From: Candidatus Parcubacteria bacterium
GTDB taxonomy: Bacteria; Patescibacteriota; Patescibacteriia; Patescibacteriales; UBA12075
Direction: 5' to 3'
Length of the DNA: 64,000 nt
Assembly: GCA_963827735.1 (NCBI GenBank)
Contig: CAWHBO010000001.1
Coordinates: 40,297-104,296 of the forward strand
Shown piece by piece: positions 2-58,822 of the stretch. Each line of letters begins with the position of its first letter. The first letter of the stretch is position 1. The position numbers and the translations under genes were made by a program. Below the pieces are notes generated by a model. It ran no database searches and was not told the DNA's origin. It saw only the letters and a list, made by a program, of their open reading frames with translations.

Positions 2-2038
2 ACAAACGTACTTGATGTAGATGGCTGGACGACTGGGGAATATAATTATATTAAAGTTTATACGACTGAATCGGCGAGGCATCGGGGGAAGTGGGATGAG
101 GGGAAGTATCGGATTGAATCGGCCGATACAGCTATTTTCCTTTTTGAAAATTATACTAATATTGACGGTTTACAAATACAAATTAATAGTGTAGGGGATG
201 AACAAGGCATTTTTGTAGGTGGTTCATATTGTACAATAAATAATAACATAATGAAGGATGTTGGTGTTAGCACTCAATGGGATAGTGGCGGAATTATAAA
301 CTGGGACACTGAACCGTCATATATATATAATAATATAATTTATAATTTTAACCTCGGAATTGATGCGCAAAATGGTCATTTGTATGCTTATAATAATACT
401 GTTAATAATTGTAGAGATCTTTGCTTTGACGCAACATATCTTGGTATTACAGCAAAAAATAATATTGCGTTAAATTGCGGAAATAATTGTTTTGATGGTT
501 CGCCATATAGTGATTCTTCCAATAATCTTTCATCTGACGGAACAGCGCCCGGTAGTTATTCACTTACAAATACCAGTGTAACATTTGTTGACGAAGCCAA
601 CGACGATTTTAGACTTATGCCGGAGGATACAGGCGCAAAAAATATTGGCGCAAATTTATCAAGTGACGCTACATCATCGTTTGCGACCGACATAGAAGGT
701 CAAGCGCGTTATGATGGACTGTGGGACATTGGAGCCGATGAAGCACCGACTATATTATATCGGTCGGTGGGAAATGATACGAGTAATCTTTTGCATAGTT
801 CAGCGTACACGGTAACGATCGCGACGACGACCGCTACGCTTTCAGCTGACGCTACAGCGAATATCGGAGTGGGGGATGTTCTGCAAATTGGGACATCCAC
901 TTATCAGCTCGCCTTCATCACCGGCCGGATATCGTCCAGTACTTACAGCGTGCAATCCGCCACCGGCTCTCTTGCTGTCGCCACCACCAGCGCGCCGGTG
1001 TCTGTTTATCGGGCGCATGAATTGCTGGATAAATGGGCATATCGCATTGTTAATAATGTTAATTCTGGGGTTGATGACAGTGTTGACGACATAGTTATAA
1101 ATTATAGCCAGAATTTAGTTGCGTCCAATACGGCTATATTTATCCCTTGTTATGCATCCACTAGTCCGGATGATGCACACGCAGAAGTTAACGGTTGGAC
1201 AACCGGAACCAGCACCTATATAAAAATTTATACTCCAGTATATTCTGATGAAGTTGGTTCGAGTCAGAGACACAGCGGGACATGGGATGATTCATCGTAT
1301 AGAATTGTACTATCGAGTATTACCCGAGTACTTTCTTTGTATAATAGTAATGTCTGGATCGATGGCTTGCAAATCAAAAATACCGACACAGGTGATTCTG
1401 ATACTTTGTCGTCCTGTATAAACAGCAATGTTGCCGCGCAAAATTTGAAAATTTCTAATTCAATTATACATGGAAGCCATGGCGGAAGCGCGATTGACTT
1501 TGATAATACGGAAATAACAGCTATGATGTGGAATAATTTAATTTATCACAACACAATGGGTACTTGGGACGAGGGAATTGATGCTAGTGTAAAAATTTTA
1601 AATATCCATAATTGCACAATATATAATTTTAATACAGGAATTAATCAAGATGCCGGCACGCTGTTAGCCTATAATAATGCCGTATTTGGCAATGCCAATG
1701 ATTTTGATGGCACAATGACATTAGATTATAACGCCTCAGACGACAAAGACGGGACAAATGCGATTGATATTAGTCCGGCCGGGTTTGCCACTGAAGCGGA
1801 TGCCTGGAAAGCTGCCTTTACGGATTATGCGAATGGAGATTTCAGCATTCGCGATACTTCCTCAGTGCTGTATGATTCCGGTACCACTATCATCGCCGTG
1901 ACCGATGATATTTTGGGGACAGTTAGGCCGCAGGGGGATGGGTATGATGTCGGGGCTTTTGAATATAATTTTGGACGTTATAAATATAGATTTAATGATG
2001 GGAGTTTTAAAGTTAGGGGAACTTTGAAGTTCCGCTAA
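2..2038 (+). CDS. Large secreted/surface protein with repeated beta-helix and choice-of-anchor-Q-like modules (5'-truncated by the window)
   Basis: The frame of ORF 251..2038 is open back to position 2. The module VDGWTTG..YIKVYT..RHxGxWD..YRI and the D-I-x-G-x-x-R...D-I/V-G-A motif each occur twice. Asn/Gly/Ile-rich beta-helix-like sequence. Confidence 0.7.
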   Translation, partial: TNVLDVDGWTTGEYNYIKVYTTESARHRGKWDEGKYRIESADTAIFLFENYTNIDGLQIQINSVGDEQGIFVGGSYCTINNNIMKDVGVSTQWDSGGIINWDTEPSYIYNNIIYNFNLGIDAQNGHLYAYNNTVNNCRDLCFDATYLGITAKNNIALNCGNNCFDGSPYSDSSNNLSSDGTAPGSYSLTNTSVTFVDEANDDFRLMPEDTGAKNIGANLSSDATSSFATDIEGQARYDGLWDIGADEAPTILYRSVGNDTSNLLHSSAYTVTIATTTATLSADATANIGVGDVLQIGTSTYQLAFITGRISSSTYSVQSATGSLAVATTSAPVSVYRAHELLDKWAYRIVNNVNSGVDDSVDDIVINYSQNLVASNTAIFIPCYASTSPDDAHAEVNGWTTGTSTYIKIYTPVYSDEVGSSQRHSGTWDDSSYRIVLSSITRVLSLYNSNVWIDGLQIKNTDTGDSDTLSSCINSNVAAQNLKISNSIIHGSHGGSAIDFDNTEITAMMWNNLIYHNTMGTWDEGIDASVKILNIHNCTIYNFNTGINQDAGTLLAYNNAVFGNANDFDGTMTLDYNASDDKDGTNAIDISPAGFATEADAWKAAFTDYANGDFSIRDTSSVLYDSGTTIIAVTDDILGTVRPQGDGYDVGAFEYNFGRYKYRFNDGSFKVRGTLKFR

Positions 2039-2080
2039 CGGATTAGCACGGATACAGGACGGATATAACGGATCACGGAT
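2038..2080 (+). repeat. Left arm: 5 x ACGGAT-core tandem array (7-11 nt period)
   Basis: ACGGAT at 2038, 2048, 2059, 2068, 2075; reverse complement of the 2514-2556 array. Confidence 0.9.
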
Positions 2081-2101
2081 ATTTAATTAAATGTTTCTAC
2101 T

Positions 2102-2521
2102 ATGAATAAATTGCTTGAAGAAGAATTAACTTACAAGATAAGGGGTTGTATTTTTAATGTTTCAAATAAGTATGGTAGGGGATTGAAAGAAAAAATTTAT
2201 CAGAAAGTATTGGCTGAAGAATTGCTTAAGGCAGGTATAAAATTTGTTGAACAGAAAAGAATTAATATCTATTCATTGGAAACCGGCAAACATATCGGCG
2301 TGTATATTCCTGATTTTGTAATTAATGATAAGATTATCATAGAAATAAAAGCTACTGCTTTTACCACCAGGCAAGATATAGAACAACAAAGGTCGTATTT
2401 GCGGGTAAGTATTTATGAAATCGCGTATTTAGTAAATTTTTCCACTCCAAAACTTGAAATACACAGATCCATATTTACGAACGATAGAAAACCATTTATA
2501 TCTAAAATACTTAATCCGTGA
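2102..2521 (+). CDS. GxxExxY protein (PD-(D/E)xK nuclease-like family)
   Basis: GLKEKIY motif, YIPDFVINDKIIIEIK (PD..ExK) and YLVNF; 139 aa. Confidence 0.9.
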   Translation: MNKLLEEELTYKIRGCIFNVSNKYGRGLKEKIYQKVLAEELLKAGIKFVEQKRINIYSLETGKHIGVYIPDFVINDKIIIEIKATAFTTRQDIEQQRSYLRVSIYEIAYLVNFSTPKLEIHRSIFTNDRKPFISKILNP

Positions 2522-2556
2522 TCCGTGCTAATCTGTATATATCCGTGATTATCAGT
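2514..2556 (-). repeat. Right arm: ATCCGT-core tandem array, inverted relative to 2038-2080
   Basis: ATCCGT/ATCTGT/ATCAGT at 2514, 2521, 2531, 2541, 2551; contains the GxxExxY stop codon. Confidence 0.9.
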
Positions 2557-2563
2557 TAAGAAT

Positions 2564-4015
2564 ATGAGAATAAACAACATAGCCAAAAACACCTCCTACT
2601 TCACCCTCGCCCTCATCCTCCAAAAGGCGCTCAGTTTTGCGTACTTTACCATTCTTGCGCGTAATTTTGTTCCTGATGATCTTGGAAAATATTACTTTGC
2701 CATTTCTTTTACGGCCATCTTCGCCATCATGATTGATCTTGGATTTGCGAATGTGATAACGCGCGAAGTTGCGAAAGCGGGGGAGCGGGCCGGGGAGATT
2801 GCGCGCGCGGTAATAGCCATGAAAATTCCGCTCGCTATCTTGTCGCTTTTATCCGTGGTATTTTTGATAAACCTTTTACACTATCCCGAAAGCACCAAAC
2901 TGCTTGTTTATTTTTCCGCCATTTGCATGACCCTTGACTCCTTCACCCTGGCTTTCTATGCCGTCAGCCGCGGCCGGCATAACCTGAAATTTGAAAGCGT
3001 TGGCTCAGTTGTTTATCAGGTGATTGTTTTGCTTACAGGGATAACGGTCATAAAATTAAATCTCGGATTGGCTTGGCTCATGGCCGCGACCATATCGGCG
3101 AGCCTCATTAACTTTATTTTTTCCTGGGCGGTTCTTAAAATTAAGTGGGGGATAAGTCCTTTGCCTTTTACGGGGGGTTTCAAGTTTGATAAGGTTTTAA
3201 CTCGCGCTCTCGTTGCAATTGCCATACCATTCGCGCTATACGGCATTTTTCAGCGTTTATACATGTATCTGGACAGCGTATTCTTATCCATCCTCGCCGG
3301 CGATTACCAAGTTGGAATTTACCAAGTGCCGTTTAAGATTGTCTTTGCTTTGCAATTCTTGCCATCAGCCTTCATGGCCTCGCTTTATCCGGCGTTTGCG
3401 AGTTATTGGCGGGGTGAAAAAAACCAACTCGCAATTTCTTTTGAACGCGCCATGAACTACCTGACAATCATTGCCTTGCCGGTAAGCGTCGGTGTGATTA
3501 CCCTTGCGGACAAGATTGTAAAATTGTTCAAAACCGAGTATACTGATGCCATCCTTCCGCTCCAACTGGTGATGATCGCCCTTTTTTTCATTTTCATTAA
3601 CTTCCCGATCGGCGCCCTGCTCAACGCCTGCGACCGGCAGAAACGCAACACCTTGAACATGGGCATTGTCCTCGTTGCCAGTATAATTTTAAACCTCTGG
3701 CTGATTCCCAAATTTCAAGCGGTCGGCGCCAGCATAACCGTGATCATCACGAACATTTTGATGTTTATCCTGGGCGCGCTGGTTGTGCCAAAGATCGCAC
3801 CCGTCAGCTTAAGCAAGCTGATTTGGCCATTCTTAAAATCCATTTTCGCAGTTGCCTGCATGGCCTTGATCGTGCTAACATTAAAACCGTACTTGAACAT
3901 ATTTATCGTGATCGCGCTTGGCGGAATGGTCTATGTTTTGTTGCTTTTTGCGATGGGGGGTTTTAGCCGAGAGGATGTGAAGAGTGTTTGGAGGTCTTTT
4001 TCTCATAACTCATAA
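2564..4015 (+). CDS. Wzx-type polysaccharide flippase (MOP superfamily)
   Basis: About 14 hydrophobic segments; IAKNT..ARNF..GKYYFA..DLGF..ITREVA N-terminal signature. Confidence 0.9.
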   Translation: MRINNIAKNTSYFTLALILQKALSFAYFTILARNFVPDDLGKYYFAISFTAIFAIMIDLGFANVITREVAKAGERAGEIARAVIAMKIPLAILSLLSVVFLINLLHYPESTKLLVYFSAICMTLDSFTLAFYAVSRGRHNLKFESVGSVVYQVIVLLTGITVIKLNLGLAWLMAATISASLINFIFSWAVLKIKWGISPLPFTGGFKFDKVLTRALVAIAIPFALYGIFQRLYMYLDSVFLSILAGDYQVGIYQVPFKIVFALQFLPSAFMASLYPAFASYWRGEKNQLAISFERAMNYLTIIALPVSVGVITLADKIVKLFKTEYTDAILPLQLVMIALFFIFINFPIGALLNACDRQKRNTLNMGIVLVASIILNLWLIPKFQAVGASITVIITNILMFILGALVVPKIAPVSLSKLIWPFLKSIFAVACMALIVLTLKPYLNIFIVIALGGMVYVLLLFAMGGFSREDVKSVWRSFSHNS

Positions 4016-4031
4016 CTTGGAACTCATAACT
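4002..4031 (+). repeat. Left arm: CTCATAA/CTTGGAA heptamer array
   Basis: ctcataa-ctcataa-cttggaa-ctcataa-ct; supplies the flippase stop codon. Confidence 0.9.
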
Positions 4032-4033
4032 TT

Positions 4034-4378
4034 ATGGCTTTCCATGATGATCTAAAAAAATACGTTCACGAGTATATAAAATTTATTTATAATATAACAA
4101 AATCTTTTCCCAAAGAAGAAATGTATGGCGTAACTTCACAGTTCAGGCGAGCAGGTATGTCAATTATGTTAAATTATATTGAGGGTTACGCCAGAAACAA
4201 TAAAACCAAAGAAAAAGTATATAAAAATTTTTTGGAAACTTCTTATGGTTCACTTAAAGAGTCAAAATATTTGTTATTTTTTTCATTTGATATAAAATAT
4301 ATTAACAAAGATAATTATACCTACGGCTTGGAATTGTCTGACAAGATCGGAGCTATGCTCTGGAGCTTAATTCAATAA
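4034..4378 (+). CDS. Four-helix-bundle protein (23S rRNA IVS protein / bAvd-like family)
   Basis: FPKEEMYGVTSQFRRAGMSIMLNYIEG and FLETSYGSLKE match the family consensus FPxxExYGLxSQxRRAAxSIxxNIxEG..GSxxE. Confidence 0.9.
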   Translation: MAFHDDLKKYVHEYIKFIYNITKSFPKEEMYGVTSQFRRAGMSIMLNYIEGYARNNKTKEKVYKNFLETSYGSLKESKYLLFFSFDIKYINKDNYTYGLELSDKIGAMLWSLIQ

Positions 4379-4425
4379 ATGAGTTATGCGTTATGAGTTC
4401 CAAGTTATGAGTTCCAAGTTATGAG
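4379..4425 (-). repeat. Right arm: TTATGAG/TTCCAAG heptamer array, inverted relative to 4002-4031
   Basis: atgag-ttatgcg-ttatgag-ttccaag-ttatgag-ttccaag-ttatgag; the last unit supplies the ATG of the next gene. Confidence 0.9.
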
Positions 4426-5569
4426 AGTACTCCTCTTCACTCTAGAATACCCTCCCTTCAAAGGCGGCGTTGCCAACTTTTACGAAAACATTGTAAAACA
4501 TTGGCCCTCCTGCGCTGAAGCTTCGGAGGGCAAGCCTTCCTTCGCTGAAGCTTCGGAGGGCAAGCCCTCTTTGGGAATTTTCGTCTTGCACAACAATAAC
4601 AACAACTTAATAAGCAATAACTTCTTCCCCAAATGGCTGCCGGCTTTTTGGCAACTGTATAAAGCGATCAAAAAAAATAAGATAGACCATGTTTTGGTTG
4701 GGCATATCTTACCGCTCGGCACAGTAACATACTATATTTCAAAAATTCTTAAAATTAAATATTCCGTTTTTCTCCACGGCATGGATCTGGCTTTTTCTCA
4801 AAAGACTCAACGCAAGAAAAACATGAGCCTTAAAATTTTAACGCACGCGTCAAAAATTCTCTGCACCAATTCTTACGTAGCCGAGCTTGTCCGCGAGACG
4901 CTTCCCGATGAAGACAGCCATGATAAGATTGAAGTCATCAATCCCGGAGTGGAGGCGCCGTATATTTCCGGCACAGACACCCGCGCCTTGCAAGAAAAAA
5001 ACAAGCTGGGCGAAAAGCTGGTTTTGTTTACCATCAGCCGGCTGGTAAAAAGAAAAGGCCATGACCTGGTCATAAAAATCATGCCCCAGTTAACGGAAAA
5101 ATATCCCAATCTTTTTTATTATATCGCGGGAACCGGAGAAGATGAGGACTATTTGAAAGATTTGGCCAAGGGCAATGACCATATCATCTTCCTCGGCAAG
5201 CTCAAAGAAAGAGACAAATGGAACTGGCTCTGCGCCTGCGACATTTTCGTCATGCCCTCCAGGCATATAGGTGATGATTTTACGCCAAATGATTTTGAAG
5301 GCTTCGGCATCGTTTATTTGGAAGCGGCAATCTGCGGTAAACCGGTCATAGCCGGCAGAAGCGGAGGCATAGAAGATGCAGTTGTTGACCACGAAACCGG
5401 CATCCTCGTTGATCCTGAAAGCGAAGATAGCATTTTGGACGGCATTGACGAGCTGGCGGGAAATTTTTTGCTCCGAAAAGAAATGGGGGAAAGAGCGCTG
5501 GAAAGAGCGGCGGAAGAATTTAACTGGGGGGATAAGGCGAAGGAGATATATGAGAGGATTGCGGAATAG
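4421..5569 (+). CDS. Glycosyltransferase family 4 (PimA/PimB-like)
   Basis: YPPFKGG, SRLVKRKG and EGFGIVYLEA..GKPVI motifs. Confidence 0.9.
   Translation: MRVLLFTLEYPPFKGGVANFYENIVKHWPSCAEASEGKPSFAEASEGKPSLGIFVLHNNNNNLISNNFFPKWLPAFWQLYKAIKKNKIDHVLVGHILPLGTVTYYISKILKIKYSVFLHGMDLAFSQKTQRKKNMSLKILTHASKILCTNSYVAELVRETLPDEDSHDKIEVINPGVEAPYISGTDTRALQEKNKLGEKLVLFTISRLVKRKGHDLVIKIMPQLTEKYPNLFYYIAGTGEDEDYLKDLAKGNDHIIFLGKLKERDKWNWLCACDIFVMPSRHIGDDFTPNDFEGFGIVYLEAAICGKPVIAGRSGGIEDAVVDHETGILVDPESEDSILDGIDELAGNFLLRKEMGERALERAAEEFNWGDKAKEIYERIAE
4505..4564 (+). repeat. 2 x 30-bp palindromic element inserted in frame in the GT4 gene
   Basis: CCCTCCTGCGCTGAAGCTTCGGAGGGCAAG followed by CCTTCCTTCGCTGAAGCTTCGGAGGGCAAG; encodes PSCAEASEGK/PSFAEASEGK. 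Confidence 0.9.
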
Positions 5570-5604
5570 GGTGTGATAATATAAATTATTTTTACTCTTT
5601 AAAT

Positions 5605-5682
5605 CTCATAACTTGGAACTCATAACTCGTAACTTTTTTAGTCAAATAATTTAAGTTCCAAGTTATGAGTTACGAGTTATGA
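5605..5682. repeat. Empty inverted heptamer-array element (same units as the four-helix-bundle flanks, no cargo gene)
   Basis: ctcataa-cttggaa-ctcataa-ctcgtaa, about 20 nt AT-rich spacer, then ttccaag-ttatgag-ttacgag-ttatga. Confidence 0.9.
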
Positions 5683-5689
5683 AACTAAT

Positions 5690-6394
5690 ATGATCTCCAT
5701 AATAATTCCATTATACAACCAATCCGACAAGATCAAGTCATGCCTTCAGAGCATAAAAAATCAAACTTATGATAATTATGAAATTATCGTCGTTAACGAC
5801 CGGTCGCGCGACCATTTGAGCAAAGTCATAAAATGGGCCCAAAGCGAATTCGGATATAAGCTTCTCTGGATCAACAATCAGGAAAACCATGGAGCGCCGT
5901 ACTCCCGGAACAAAGGCTTATATAAATCCAAAGGCGAATATGTCTTGTTTTGCGACGCTGATATCGTTTTGGAACCAAACGCCTTGGAACTCATGATTCA
6001 AACCCTGAACACCCACCCGGAGGCGGCTTACGCTTATCCTTCGCACTTGCACGGTTCAAAATTGTTTAGACTCTGGCCCTTTGACGCGGAAAAATTAAAA
6101 ACCATGCCGTATATCCATTCCACCGCTCTGGTCCGGAGAAAATGCCTGCCGGCATCCGGTTGGGATGAAACCTTAAAGAGATTCCAAGACTGGGACCTGT
6201 GGCTGACAATGCTGGAGGCGGGACACCAAGGAATCTGGATTGACAACGTTCTCTTTAAAATCGTCGGCGGCGGCCACACCATGAGCGCCTGGCTCCCGTC
6301 GTTTGCATATAAATACCTGCCATTTTTGCCGCGGGTAAAGAAATATAAAGCGGCGATGGAGGTGATAAAGAAGAAGCATGGAATTTTATTTTAA
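5690..6394 (+). CDS. Glycosyltransferase family 2
   Basis: ISIIIPLYN, EIIVVNDRS, FCDAD (DxD) and QDWDLWL motifs. Confidence 0.9.
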   Translation: MISIIIPLYNQSDKIKSCLQSIKNQTYDNYEIIVVNDRSRDHLSKVIKWAQSEFGYKLLWINNQENHGAPYSRNKGLYKSKGEYVLFCDADIVLEPNALELMIQTLNTHPEAAYAYPSHLHGSKLFRLWPFDAEKLKTMPYIHSTALVRRKCLPASGWDETLKRFQDWDLWLTMLEAGHQGIWIDNVLFKIVGGGHTMSAWLPSFAYKYLPFLPRVKKYKAAMEVIKKKHGILF

Positions 6395-23297: not shown

Positions 23298-24350
23298 ATG
23301 TACGAAGATGTAAAACAAAAATTCAGCGAACTTGAGAAAAAGCTTTCTGACCCGAAAATTGCTTCTGACATCAAAAAAATGACTCAAATTTCCAAAGAGC
23401 ACACAGCCCTAAGAGAAGTTATGGTTATGATTTTTGAGTTGGAAAAAACTGAAAAAAATCTTCAAGATAACCAAGATATCATAAACAATGAAACTGATGC
23501 CGATCTAAGAGAAATGGCTCAAAGCGAACAAGAGACCCTTGCAAACAAGATTACGGAGCTTAAAAAAGACATCAACAGCGAGCTTAACCCGCCGGATCCG
23601 AATGATAAAAAAGACGTAATCATGGAAATCCGAGCCGGAACCGGCGGCGATGAATCAGCGCTTTTCGCAGCTGACCTTTTCCGGATGTATTCCCGTTTTG
23701 CCGAACGCCAAGGTTGGAAAATTTCCATTCTTGATTCCAGTCCCATCGGAATCGGCGGGTACAAAGAGATCATTTTTGAAATTACCGGAAAAAATGTTTT
23801 TGGATTCTTAAAATATGAAAGCGGCACTCACCGCGTCCAACGCGTTCCGGAAACTGAAAAAGCCGGTCGGATACACACTTCCGCGGCTACGGTCGCAGTG
23901 TTGCCGCAAGCCGAGGAAGTTGACGTTGAGATCAGACCTCAAGACTTGAAAATTGACACATATTGCTCTTCCGGACCGGGCGGGCAGAGCGTTAACACGA
24001 CATATTCCGCCATCAGGATAACTCATTTGCCGACAGGACTCGTGGTAACGTGCCAAGACCAGAGATCCCAACAGCAAAACAAGATCAAAGCCATGCAGAT
24101 CTTGCGTTCTCGTCTTTATGAAAAACTGGAAAATGACAGGCACGCTTTGGAGGCGGCGGACAGGAAACAGCAGATCGGATCAGGTGATCGTTCTGAAAAA
24201 ATCCGGACTTACAATTTTCCTCAAGACCGCATAACCGACCATCGCATCAAGCAGTCATGGCATTCCATCACGCGCATCATGGACGGTGAAATTTTGGAGA
24301 TCATTTTAGCTTTAAAGAAAGCATCCCAAGATATTTCGCAACCAAAATAA
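23298..24350 (+). CDS. prfA: Peptide chain release factor 1
   Basis: [16 protein letters not shown] (PxT), GPGGQSVN and [12 protein letters not shown] motifs. Confidence 0.97.
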
Positions 24351-24364
24351 ATAAATACATTGCA

Positions 24365-25321
24365 ATGCTCATAAAAGAAGCGATAAAATACGCAACTGAA
24401 AAATTGCAAACGGCAAAAATAAAAAATCCGCGCCTGGAAGCGGAATTTTTATTATCCCATATCCTGAAAAAATCGCGAGAATATATCTTATCTTATCCGG
24501 AAAAAAAATTAATAAAAATTCAAGTTATGCGTTTTGAGTTATGCGTTACGCAAAGATTAAGGGGTATGCCGCTGGCCTATATTGTCGGCCACAAAGGATT
24601 CTACGGCCTGGATTTCAAGGTTAATAAAAATGTCCTTATCCCCCGTCCGGAAACGGAACTTATGGTTGATAATGTCTTGGAACTCATAACTCGTAACTCA
24701 CAACTTAAAACTCAAAACTCACTTGTACCCGAATGGGCAAAACTTTTAATCATTGATGTCGGCACCGGGAGCGGTTGTATCGCAATCTCACTTGCCAAAC
24801 AATTAAAAAGTTACGAGTTACGAGTTCCAAGTTACGAGATTTATGCGACTGATATCTCCAAACCGGCTCTTATGGTAGCCAAACAAAACTCCAAATCCAA
24901 TAAGGTATATGGCCAGATAAAATTTTTTCCTGGCGATTTACTTGAGCCGGTTATAGATAAGTTACGAGTTACGAGTTATGAGTTACAAGTAATCATCACC
25001 GCCAACCTCCCCTACGGCTGGTCTGCCTGGAAAAACAACACATCAGCCGATACCATAGGTCTAAAATTTGAACCTCAAATCGCCTTGTTTACCGGGAAAA
25101 ATGGTCTTGAGCTTTATGAAAAATTATTTAATCAAATAACAAATATTATTTCAATATCCAAATATCCCAATATCCCAATATCCCTACTCTGTGAATTTGA
25201 TCCCAGACAAACCGCTCAATTAAAAAAAATGATCAAAAAAATTCTTCCAAAGTCAACGACAGTAATAAAAAAAGACCTGAGCGGCCTTGATAGATTGGCA
25301 ATAATAAAAATCCAAAATTAA
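24365..25321 (+). CDS. prmC: Release factor glutamine methyltransferase carrying five in-frame repeat arrays
   Basis: PLAYIVG, VLIPRPETE, DVGTGSGCIA and ANLPY motifs; follows prfA. Confidence 0.93.
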   Translation: MLIKEAIKYATEKLQTAKIKNPRLEAEFLLSHILKKSREYILSYPEKKLIKIQVMRFELCVTQRLRGMPLAYIVGHKGFYGLDFKVNKNVLIPRPETELMVDNVLELITRNSQLKTQNSLVPEWAKLLIIDVGTGSGCIAISLAKQLKSYELRVPSYEIYATDISKPALMVAKQNSKSNKVYGQIKFFPGDLLEPVIDKLRVTSYELQVIITANLPYGWSAWKNNTSADTIGLKFEPQIALFTGKNGLELYEKLFNQITNIISISKYPNIPISLLCEFDPRQTAQLKKMIKKILPKSTTVIKKDLSGLDRLAIIKIQN

Positions 25322-45774: not shown

Positions 45775-45858
45775 AATAATCAATATCCAATGATCAATAT
45801 TCAATGAATATTCAATATTTAATATTCATTGAATATTGAATATTGTGCATTGAACATT
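45775..45858. repeat. Inverted ATATTCA/TGAATAT heptamer-array element
   Basis: caatattcaatgaatattcaatatt-t-aatattcattgaatattgaatattg. Confidence 0.8.
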
Positions 45859-58320: not shown

Positions 58321-58333
58321 ATAAGTCTTAATG

Positions 58334-58366
58334 TTATGAGTTATGAGTTATGAGTTATGAGTTATG
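58334..58366. repeat. Solo (TTATGAG)4+ heptamer array overlapping the iscU stop
   Basis: Same unit as the four-helix-bundle flanks; gives IscU the ..THNS* tail, like the flippase ..SHNS* tail. Confidence 0.9.
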
Positions 58367-58719: not shown

Positions 58720-58760
58720 AATGTTAATTTAAATTACAAAATAAAACCTTTAATGATCTA

Positions 58761-58822
58761 TTTCTAATTTCTAATTTCTAATTTCTAATTTCTAATTTCT
58801 AATTTCTAATTTCTAATTTCTA
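58761..58822. repeat. Perfect (TTTCTAA)8+ heptamer microsatellite
   Basis: 8 exact units plus TTTCTA, overlapping the Rrf2 stop codon. Confidence 0.95.

Follow-up and report, generated by a model that had tools for sequence, protein, structure and literature searches.

How two small genes of unrelated families came to lie in a glycan (sugar-coat) operon, each between protein-coding genes and each enclosed by a pair of inverted repeat arms, is the question raised by the stretch of DNA analysed here, the whole 64,000 nucleotides of which we refer to as the window. The source genome is Patescibacteria-like, comprises 1.34 Mb and is 90.8% complete.

The first gene (2102-2521, + strand) encodes a GxxExxY protein of 139 residues, i.e. 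a PD-(D/E)xK nuclease, as assigned by profile searches with PF13366 (E 7e-28) and TIGR04256 (E 7.5e-29). The nuclease retains catalytic residues; it has the G-x-x-E30-x-x-Y33 motif plus D71, E81 and K83, and E30, D71, E81 and K83 are invariant across 26 aligned homologues. The left arm (2036-2080; arms and arrays bracketing genes are given without strand) consists of five irregularly spaced ACGGAT cores and overlaps the stop codon of the upstream ORF (2036-2038). The right arm (2514-2558) holds the stop codon of the GxxExxY gene itself (2519-2521) and ends 5 nt short of the flippase start at 2564. The complete arms, 45 nt each, are 73% complementary, including a stretch, ACGGATCACGGAT (2068-2080), that is the perfect reverse complement of 2514-2526 (13/13), and a second one in which 2038-2053 and 2521-2536 are complementary at 15/16 positions. 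They pair in both the MFE and the centroid structure of a 536-nt in silico fold (z -2.65).

The second gene (4034-4378, + strand) encodes a four-helix-bundle (4HB) protein of 114 residues from the 23S rRNA intervening sequence (IVS) protein family (PF05635, E 6.3e-25; TIGR02436, E 1.1e-24; profile search), which also matches XCC0516 (PDB 2gsc, E 1.1e-9). The gene upstream, for a Wzx-type polysaccharide flippase (2564-4015, + strand), takes its final codons and its stop codon, TAA 4013-4015, from the left heptamer array (4001-4033, the period-7 array proper being 4002-4031; CTCATAA/CTTGGAA units, 4.3 copies), and the gene downstream, for a GT4 glycosyltransferase (4421-5569, + strand), has its ATG at 4421 inside the last unit of the right heptamer array (4379-4426, the period-7 array proper being 4379-4425; 6.7 copies). 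The two arrays include a 24-nt perfect inverted repeat in two registers and pair in predicted MFE and centroid folds (z -5.9). An earlier note on this DNA had described the GxxExxY gene as lying between an ACGGAT array and its reverse complement and the 4HB gene as lying between CTCATAA/CTTGGAA heptamer arrays and their inverse, with the arms supplying codons to the neighbouring genes; its coordinates and pairing counts, the period-7 arrays on both sides and the two codons all stand.

The inverted arms around the two genes are real and far from chance. Across 1189 crude ORFs of the source genome, a score for inverted repeats in the flanks has a median of 8, a 95th percentile of 12 and a 99th percentile of 22; the 4HB gene of the window scores 24 (rank 10 of 1189) and the GxxExxY gene 16 (rank 25 of 1189). 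In this genome the two families have 10 members, all with inverted arms and each with a unit of its own; seven of them rank within the top 25 of the 1189 ORFs, the remaining three being detected as long-loop hairpins. Seven members are 4HB genes (PF05635), and their units differ from copy to copy. Units are private to the gene lineage rather than, as the earlier note proposed, to the cargo family.

That such units move as DNA is suggested by two 4HB copies at different loci (C1 and C8), which are identical at 339 of 345 nt, the identity starting and stopping at the arms and the arms differing by unit-number indels only. At the junctions of C1, C8 and the GxxExxY copies inverted arms are present and we observed no direct repeat or target-site duplication; profile searches found no transposase domain in either cargo gene (PF13366, PF05635).

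Arm units also occur apart from any cargo. The CTCATAA family has 22 loci in the source genome, of which nine are hairpins with units in both orientations and two are filled, and an orphan, perfect array of GTTATGA, from the same unit family, lies at 58333-58366 of the window (4.9 copies). More generally, 7 is the commonest tandem-repeat period in this genome (173 of 642 arrays), and 134 of the 173 period-7 arrays fall outside crude ORFs. The excess of orphan over filled hairpins would suit a process in which only the gene is mobile and inserts by homing at loops of palindromes that the host already had (hairpins of a REP-like or terminator-like type), the arms then being the target site, as would the empty hairpin 1.2 kb downstream in the window (CTCATAA-family units, about 5604-5682; arms 5606-5635 and 5653-5682, 30 nt, 87% complementary, loop 17; in silico fold -30.3 kcal/mol, z -7.8) and the location of rRNA IVSs and CPR rRNA insertions at helix tips. 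We nevertheless regard homing of the gene alone as unlikely, given that the arm sequence tracks the protein lineage across phyla rather than the host, that the seven 4HB genes of one genome have different units, and that the ACGGAT arms of the window, which formed no dispersed family in a genome-wide search (1 site), are without another copy to act as target. Genomes free of the genes are, moreover, nearly free of heptamer arrays, which means that hosts do not have these hairpins independently of the genes. A possible homing variant, with a cognate orphan palindrome being cut by the protein and repaired from the filled copy, merges with the explanation preferred below.

The association of genes with arrays at the genome level comes from a comparison of related genomes in small numbers, the gene-free ones mostly from other families of the order, in which period-7 arrays number 6 over 792 kb in six relatives lacking both families and 75 over 716 kb in seven gene-rich ones, with no overlap between the ranges of array density. 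The gene-rich relatives and the source genome have 5-16 heptamer arrays per 100 kb. For one relative (G037), with 87 CATAAC-type array matches, a search with the window protein as query returned no close cognate 4HB.

A survey across bacterial phyla extends these observations. Of 106 4HB loci from many phyla that could be measured, 71 have a flank score of at least 12.5, as do 23 of 28 GxxExxY loci, compared with the 95th percentile of 12 in the source genome; the lower scores of the other 35 4HB loci stem in part from genes that are broken or have crudely called starts. The 4HB arms have a period of 7 in 80 of 120 cases and of 8 in 16 of 120, compared with 1 of 120 for controls, and a median copy number of 4.3 (IQR 3.4-4.9). 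Arm relatedness follows protein relatedness (Spearman 0.19, n=62, and 0.42, n=21; neither value was reached in any of 1000 permutations); for instance, an arm of ~40 nt is almost identical in two genera whose enclosed proteins are 65% identical, and one Flavobacterium genome has nine 4HB genes with nine different units. The groES-groEL spacer holds a cassette in 5 of 30 Flavobacterium genomes. Neighbouring genes are mostly on the same strand, both for 4HB genes (upstream 89/100, downstream 95/104) and for GxxExxY genes (29/30 and 22/24). The earlier note had read the two units as transposase-free mobile or excisable cassettes, IVS-like in nature, and had proposed to test for enrichment of inverted arrays around homologues, for units that follow protein relatedness, and for presence or absence at syntenic sites. 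Because all three are borne out, the last by the Flavobacterium spacer and by the duplicate with identity ending at the arms, this is a fair description; the note missed the genome-wide orphan arrays and hairpins and the pan-bacterial spread.

The same results bear on whether the arrays are ordinary slippage-prone SSRs, or sites serving the cis-regulation or phase variation of surface-glycan genes, with the small genes being incidental. Within the glycan operon the arrays do extend over stop and start codons of host genes, their copy number varies, as between C1 and C8, and heptamers are reported to be more abundant in bacteria than any other class of long SSR, which has been ascribed to polymerase slippage (PMC4679880, PMC4692102). 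Slippage, however, leaves unexplained the matched inverted arrays flanking two gene families in many phyla, the tracking of protein lineage by the units and the near-absence of arrays from gene-free genomes. The contexts are also not specific to glycans, since they include the groES-groEL spacer, cas operons, which are another context of the family (PMC3936711), and a site adjoining a tRNA (L027), and at the window gain or loss of units would not turn the flanking ORFs on or off. We consider this explanation hardly credible.

It has also to be asked whether the arms are mainly an RNA device, i.e. a stem processed by RNase III that cuts the operon transcript and frees a small mRNA, maintained by selection on RNA pairing and with negligible DNA mobility. 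The pairing of arms in the predicted folds of the two cassettes and the empty hairpin, the strong bias to sense orientation, the RNase III gene found in the source genome and the IVS precedent are all in line with such a role. On the sense strand, however, mismatches between arms comprise 90 G:T and 93 A:C (and 198 of other types), so that there is no wobble bias, and over half of the isolated mismatches are not compensable; selection for pairing as RNA is thus not apparent. The long mRNA stem proposed in the note stands as an in silico fold, but finds no counterpart in an excess of G:U over A:C. In addition, the duplicate that is nearly identical at another locus, the patchiness at syntenic sites and the dispersed orphan arrays all require spread at the DNA level, and a purely RNA-based role appears improbable.

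We conclude that both units probably belong to a widespread class of selfish cassettes of ~0.4-0.5 kb, of the same kind as the ORF-bearing 23S rRNA IVSs but lodged between the genes of operons. The best reading of the class is as a pan-bacterial, non-rRNA form of these IVSs with orphan arms of a REP/MITE-like type. Its plan is one small ORF, for either a 4HB protein (PF05635) or a GxxExxY PD-(D/E)xK nuclease (PF13366), between two inverted arms, the unit of which is short and specific to the lineage of the enclosed protein; the arms are tandem heptamers, typically of 4-5 units, in the 4HB type and longer inverted repeats with a recurring hexamer core, irregularly spaced, in the GxxExxY type. 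Arms and ORF are passed on and duplicated as one, the cassettes lie in sense orientation inside strings of co-directional genes, and ORF-less units are dispersed as orphan arrays and hairpins, even in frame in a coding gene, in a manner that, by analogy, resembles REP or MITE populations around a master gene.

With respect to mechanism, the encoded protein would recognise its own units and so take part in copying or spreading the arms and the cassette; the roughly five units per arm would suit a 4HB ring that is pentameric, and the nuclease has kept its catalytic residues. No catalytic activity is known for 4HB proteins. Expression of the cassette would depend on read-through transcription, and pairing of the arms in the transcript would give a long stem that renders the insertion harmless and, by analogy with rRNA IVSs, may be a substrate for an RNase III-type enzyme.

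Of known systems, the ORF-bearing 23S rRNA IVSs (Leptospira, Coxiella, Brucella; S23p) are closest, as they share the PF05635 family with the 4HB cargo, have terminal inverted repeats forming a predicted stem around the ORF and, like the cassettes, are without a transposase; the S23p-type protein fits the 4HB cassette, not the GxxExxY cassette. According to PMC4990558, the terminal repeats of the Coxiella IVS form a stem of 28 bp and RNase III cuts the element out; upstream of the 4HB ORF there are 2-3 tandem heptamers, in a number that differs between strains. This IVS measures about 430 nt, compared with 426 nt for the 4HB cassette of the window. An actual insertion in 23S rRNA was rejected, the sole LSU rRNA match (C5:127642-130825) coinciding with none of the seven PF05635 matches. 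The window cassettes differ from IVSs, which sit in an rRNA helix, in lying between protein-coding genes, in that a second, unrelated cargo family (the GxxExxY nuclease) has the same architecture, and in that arms here belong to dispersed families of orphan arrays.

In REP/REPIN-RAYT systems, reportedly the subject of work by Nunvar in 2010 and by Bertels and Rainey in 2011, one gene is flanked by inverted short palindromic repeats, the repeat family is dispersed intergenically and each gene lineage has its own family. The 4HB cassette, with 22 loci of its unit family, is similar in having a gene flanked by an inverted, genome-dispersed repeat, whereas the ACGGAT arm of the GxxExxY cassette is not dispersed. 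The arms here are, furthermore, tandem heptamer arrays and not a single hairpin, and the cassettes are inside operons in sense orientation. Identity with RAYTs was rejected, as the cargo is PF13366 or PF05635 and not a Y1 HUH transposase; the only PF01797 (Y1_Tnp-like) match of the genome (C3:347485-347790) is flanked by a different, GC-rich REP. MITEs, such as the Correia elements, and also the Rickettsia palindromic elements (RPEs) are small, palindromic and non-autonomous; RNase III acts on Correia hairpins in mRNA, and RPEs insert in frame in coding genes. Like the latter, three CTCATAA-family arrays of the window (24676-24722, forward; 24809-24838 and 24960-24990, reverse) are in frame within a prmC-like ORF (24365-25321). 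The present elements differ from MITEs and RPEs in showing no visible target-site duplication at the junctions examined, in having arms that are low-complexity unit arrays and in a full-length form with a small non-transposase ORF. The 4HB protein has a fold related to that of DGR Avd (PF22296, E 3.4e-6; NF033474, E 1.2e-8; both under cut-offs), but assignment as Avd was rejected (NF033474, 35.2 bits against a cut-off of 80), and no reverse transcriptase (PF00078) was matched in the source genome, which is 90.8% complete. In a search for anti-phage defence components, neither protein matched any PADLOC family with E values of up to 0.01 allowed.

Dispersed heptanucleotide families have been described in several bacteria, i.e. 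STRR in Calothrix/Nostoc, GGGAATC in Xanthomonas, TAACTGA in Beggiatoaceae/Microcystis, and GGGACCG and MTYCTGA in Geobacter; they typically have 2-6 units, are mostly intergenic, often abut start codons and are sometimes in frame in ORFs (PMC4692102, PMC4679880, PMC2700814). They often form convergent inverted pairs, 70 of them in X. campestris (PMC4692102). The source genome is similar in its tandem 7-nt units, present in few copies at many, mostly intergenic, loci; the excerpted texts name no associated protein family (PMC4692102, PMC4679880, PMC2700814), whereas here 4HB genes lie between such arrays and the two go together at the genome level. It is possible, as a tentative extension, that 4HB 'IVS proteins' and GxxExxY nucleases are the protein partners of such repeats (STRR, TAACTGA, GGGAATC and others), with each lineage recognising its own ~7-nt unit, a pentameric ring reading some five tandem units, and the protein driving the spread, homogenisation or maintenance of arrays from a master cassette. 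Such a symbiosis would be RAYT/REPIN-like but based on a protein of non-HUH type, and rRNA IVSs would be the special case of cassettes that landed at helix tips of rRNA. We found no paper linking 4HB or GxxExxY proteins to dispersed heptamer repeats.

The results may connect the unexplained seven-base repeats across bacterial genomes with a protein family whose function is unknown, and they join the function of IVS proteins and the origin of rRNA IVSs, questions that date from the early 1990s, with the reason for the prevalence of heptamers among the long simple repeats of bacteria. It is a testable hypothesis that a small pentameric protein, or a minimal PD-(D/E)xK nuclease, recognises tandem units by their sequence; there are cultured carriers, and one Flavobacterium genome has the nine paralogues. 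With respect to annotation, cassettes inside cas, chaperone and glycan operons, and arrays that can invade coding genes in frame, call for caution, and operon-internal cassettes may account for reported 'associations' of the family with CRISPR loci. In the window, arrays also stand on both sides of the GT4 gene, as a by-product, giving it a flank score of 27.5 (rank 7 of 1189).

The two small genes lie in a string of co-directional genes, the first two gaps of which they wholly occupy. A large ORF that ends at 2038 and has no match in Pfam is followed by the GxxExxY gene (2102-2521; 139 aa; PD-(D/E)xK; PF13366 at 7e-28, TIGR04256), a Wzx-type flippase (2564-4015), the four-helix-bundle (4HB) gene of the 23S-rRNA-IVS-protein family (4034-4378; 114 aa; PF05635 at 6.3e-25, TIGR02436; IVS, intervening sequence), a GT4 glycosyltransferase (4421-5569) and a GT2 glycosyltransferase (5690-6394). 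The repeats that the earlier note had described around both small genes are all present: the GxxExxY arms (2036-2080 and 2514-2558; 45 nt, 73% complementary) contain the exact 13-mer and the 16-mer matching at 15 of 16 positions, and the 4HB gene is bracketed by period-7 arrays (4002-4031 and 4379-4425) containing, in two registers, a perfect inverted repeat of 24 nt. The same heptamers recur in a cargo-less hairpin at 5606-5635/5653-5682. The arms adjoin the host genes or run into them: the stop codons of the upstream ORF, the flippase and the GxxExxY gene itself, as well as the GT4 start codon, all lie inside arm sequence. Within the GT4 gene, a 30-nt unit repeated 2.2 times (4504-4569) gives a duplicated decapeptide near the N terminus and itself holds a short GC-rich hairpin.

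Database searches place the window 4HB protein as a relative of the structurally characterized pentameric XCC0516 (2gsc, E 1.1e-9). For the GxxExxY protein, a single-sequence search of the PDB gave 0 matches and a profile search with the family alignment gave nothing significant, with 3cae, 'Endonuclease I', as the top-ranking nuclease (E 0.15); residues E30, D71, E81 and K83 are invariant among 26 GxxExxY sequences. Neither cassette protein was matched by the PADLOC models, Rfam (E up to 1) returned no known RNA family, the orphan hairpin giving only sub-threshold matches to plant miRNA-precursor hairpins, and the promoter/terminator scan was not enriched (13 versus 9.9 expected, and 2 versus 4.3).

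The window is C1:40297-104296 of the source genome, a 1.34-Mb assembly of 8 contigs (90.8% complete), which provides a background against which the arms can be judged. Flank scores, i.e. the best local alignment of the upstream flank with the reverse complement of the downstream flank, were calculated with 90-nt flanks for 1189 crudely called ORFs, giving a median of 8, a 95th percentile of 12 and a 99th percentile of 22. The genome has ten matches to the two families (3 to PF13366 and 7 to PF05635, including a pseudogene), of which seven rank 1, 3, 4, 6, 10, 15 and 25 among the 1189; the arms of the other three lie farther out and were recovered by a long-loop hairpin census. The proposal that each cargo family has its own repeat unit holds insofar as the units are specific, but their owner is the gene lineage: the unit differs from copy to copy, except that the window 4HB gene has its unit in common with a C8 copy, the products of the two being identical at 113/114 residues.

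The arm units are also dispersed as orphan arrays. The CTCATAA/CTTGGAA family occupies 22 loci genome-wide, 9 of which have both orientations close together, i.e. are orphan hairpins. For the two other GxxExxY copies, the corresponding arm families are found at 11 and 18 loci, and the ACGGAT arm of the window GxxExxY gene occurs once. Tandem Repeats Finder (TRF) reported 642 arrays, with period 7 being the commonest (173, of which 134 are outside crude ORFs). Arrays can also lie within coding sequence: a prmC/HemK-like ORF (24365-25321, + strand), downstream of prfA (23298-24350) and intact at 318 aa, holds four in frame, three of the 4HB cassette unit family in opposing orientations (24676-24722, 24809-24838 and 24960-24990) and one CAATATCC array (25152-25184); given the opposing orientations, hairpins could arise within the coding part of its mRNA. 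Elsewhere in the window there is a perfect 9-copy ATTTCTA array (58760-58822) and a complex AATATTC/TGAATAT array region (45775-45858); no 4HB gene with an AATATTC-type unit, a family of 14 arrays genome-wide, was found in the 90.8%-complete assembly. A CTCATAA-family inverted pair with a loop of ~100 nt (C5:127055-127217) lies ~430 nt upstream of the 23S rRNA gene (127642), with the RNase III gene (125136-125528) upstream of the pair.

Comparison of the 4HB copy in the window (contig C1) with that on C8 reveals that arms and gene have been duplicated together. The ORFs are identical at 339/345 nt, with one amino acid change, and the similarity extends from the outer edge of the left array to a few bases past the right array; the arms differ by indels only, 66 nt in the left arm and exactly 7 nt in the right one. 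At both sites a GT4 gene takes its ATG from the last unit, the two GT4 genes being different. No target-site duplication is visible at the C1, C8 or GxxExxY junctions. Among homologues, arm 6-mer similarity rises with protein identity, the mean Jaccard index for 4HB being 0.10 above 60% identity versus about 0.01 below 50%. As had been predicted, the repeat unit tracks protein relatedness (Spearman 0.19 for 4HB, n=62; 0.42 for GxxExxY, n=21; neither value equalled in any of 1000 permutations), for a set without arm scores <14, proteins <95 aa, identical proteins and loci L001, L036 and L051. This correlation shows co-inheritance, and not necessarily co-evolution. The nearest relatives of the window 4HB protein (52-66% identity, from several candidate phyla) all have CATAAC-like heptamers. 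In a GxxExxY pair from two genera, proteins that are only 65% identical share a ~40-nt arm almost letter for letter, which suggests that the arm sequence itself is under constraint.

The same anatomy is widespread. Homologues of both genes with it were found in 40 related genomes (loci L001-L060), and a scan of one genome per species added 80 4HB loci from Patescibacteria, Bacteroidota, Planctomycetota, Omnitrophota, Elusimicrobia, Proteobacteria, Acidobacteriota and other phyla. In the pooled set, flank scores of >=12.5 were obtained for 71/106 measurable 4HB loci and 23/28 GxxExxY loci (medians 15.25 and 22.25, respectively), counts that are lower bounds because start codons were crudely called and several low scorers are broken genes, and that benefit slightly from the longer flanks of the test set (100 nt, compared with 90 nt in the background set); contig ends or N removed 4/110 4HB and 2/30 GxxExxY loci. 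The observation made in the earlier note is confirmed, and its extent is much broader than was described there. Measured on the aligned arms of 4HB loci scoring >=14, period 7 was found in 80/120, period 8 in 16 and none in 18, compared with 1/120 periodic among matched random segments; GxxExxY arms are mostly not strictly periodic (40/44), with a hexamer core recurring at irregular spacing. TRF places a period-7/8 array in 145/214 4HB flanks; the median copy number is 4.3 (IQR 3.4-4.9), and the median distances are 19 nt upstream of the start codon and 10 nt downstream of the stop codon. In a cultured Flavobacterium genome there are nine 4HB genes, each of which has a different unit. Two loci, L037 and L052, have ORFs of 259 and 280 aa with low flank scores (10 and 12, respectively); with two matches each, these appear to be tandem fusions of a pair of GxxExxY domains.

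Presence and absence at a syntenic site, as anticipated for a mobile cassette, is observed in the groES-groEL spacer of 30 Flavobacterium genomes, which measures 11-102 nt in 25 of them, as against 413-494 nt in the other 5. Each long spacer (L145, L152, L154, L160 and L169) contains one 4HB gene, broken in one case, between inverted TAAGC-type heptamer arrays, and the five cassette-bearing genomes are scattered over GroES identities of 88-100%; the junctions themselves are unreadable, non-coding divergence being too high. Several 'empty' spacers (e.g. L144) hold a different heptamer array. The environmental Flavobacterium of locus L105 has one cassette in this spacer and eight others elsewhere. 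Pattern counts in Flavobacterium (AAGTC, 10 versus 7 in a noisy reversed control, genome G041; TAAGC, 5 versus 0, clean but low) are taken only as evidence that the cassette units also occur there as orphan arrays.

Genome-level co-occurrence of arrays and genes is also apparent. The 792 kb sampled from six relatives in which neither family was matched contain 6 period-7 arrays (0-2.5 per 100 kb), compared with 75 in the 716 kb from seven relatives rich in these genes (5.0-16 per 100 kb); the source genome is at 12.9 per 100 kb. There is no overlap between the ranges and the Spearman correlation with gene density is 0.81, for groups selected as the extremes of gene count and for genomes that are related and not independent, the gene-free ones being mostly from other families of the order; for tandem-repeat periods other than 7 the difference between the groups is much smaller. 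A CATAAC-type double unit occurs 100 times in the source genome, 10-41 times in five relatives the cognate 4HB gene of which has CATAAC-type arms, and 0 times in 15/40 relatives; in one further genome, G037, there are 87 matches and a close cognate 4HB gene was not found.

Cassettes lie in sense orientation with respect to their neighbors. Based on crude ORFs, the upstream neighbor is on the same strand at 89/100 4HB and 29/30 GxxExxY loci, and the downstream neighbor at 95/104 and 22/24, respectively. This bias is consistent with the cassette genes relying on read-through transcription, and could also be produced by a bias of insertion linked to replication. With respect to the RNA, predicted folds pair the arms in all three elements, with z -5.9 for the 437-nt 4HB cassette, z -2.65 for the 536-nt GxxExxY cassette and z -7.8 for the orphan hairpin, and the source genome has an RNase III gene. 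There is no sign in the arm mismatches of selection preserving a sense-strand RNA stem: isolated mismatches at 98 loci (without identical proteins and loci scoring <14) comprise 90 of the G:T type, 93 of the A:C type and 198 others, i.e. no excess of G:T, and a looser count over 51 broad loci (64 G:T versus 95 A:C) likewise does not support RNA constraint.

The description of the window elements as transposase-free, IVS-like cassettes was right in kind. By their anatomy, they are most likely of the ORF-bearing 23S rRNA IVS element type, located outside rRNA, with which they have in common the protein family, an ORF within a long terminal stem and the lack of a transposase. The Coxiella IVS, as described in PMC4990558, has 2-3 tandem heptamers before its ORF, the number being strain-variable, and its excision by RNase III has been demonstrated. 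Unlike the rRNA IVS, the cassettes are located outside rRNA, have a second, interchangeable cargo (the GxxExxY nuclease) and have orphan arms. Mechanistically, the cassette protein may bind its own units, about 4-5 units per arm being set against a pentameric ring; the GxxExxY protein would be catalytically active, as its four invariant residues imply; and the paired arms could make insertions tolerable and subject to RNase III.

Families of dispersed heptamers have been described more than once, with no protein partner named in those descriptions. PMC4692102 covers GGGAATC of Xanthomonas, which has 70 convergent pairs, together with GGGGAYT of Nostoc; PMC4679880 covers TAACTGA, which occurs in Beggiatoaceae, cyanobacteria and Bacteroidetes; and PMC2700814 covers heptamer elements of four and five units in Geobacter. 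That the 4HB and GxxExxY families are the partners of such bacterial heptamer repeat families is a tentative and somewhat doubtful proposal. In the literature searched, no paper ties non-rRNA genes of PF05635 or PF13366 to repeat arrays, whether flanking or dispersed; subscription journals and supplements lay outside the search, so an earlier description is possible. PF05635 genes are reported inside cas operons (PMC3936711), among CRISPR-array-linked proteins (in a legend of PMC10910872) and in CPR rRNA insertions (bioRxiv 2024.02.27.582315). The reported link of 23S_rRNA_IVP to cas operons and CRISPR arrays may in part reflect the insertion of these cassettes into any operon and the possible detection of their flanking short-repeat arrays by repeat finders.

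The dispersal of the arms as orphans also gives the cassettes a likeness to REP elements and MITEs, comparable systems being REP/RAYT, Correia elements and RPEs. The source genome contains a classical comparator, a Y1_Tnp (IS200/RAYT-like) gene (C3:347308-347847, - strand; PF01797, E 2.7e-6) with several copies of its own GC-rich hairpin REP on both sides, which is a classical REP-RAYT arrangement. On the same contig, at about 156000-175400, a string of small genes, each within its own unique inverted repeat of 17-29 nt and with a conserved attC-like sequence outside the repeats, resembles either an integron-type array of cassettes or another, third architecture of the 'gene in hairpin loop' kind.
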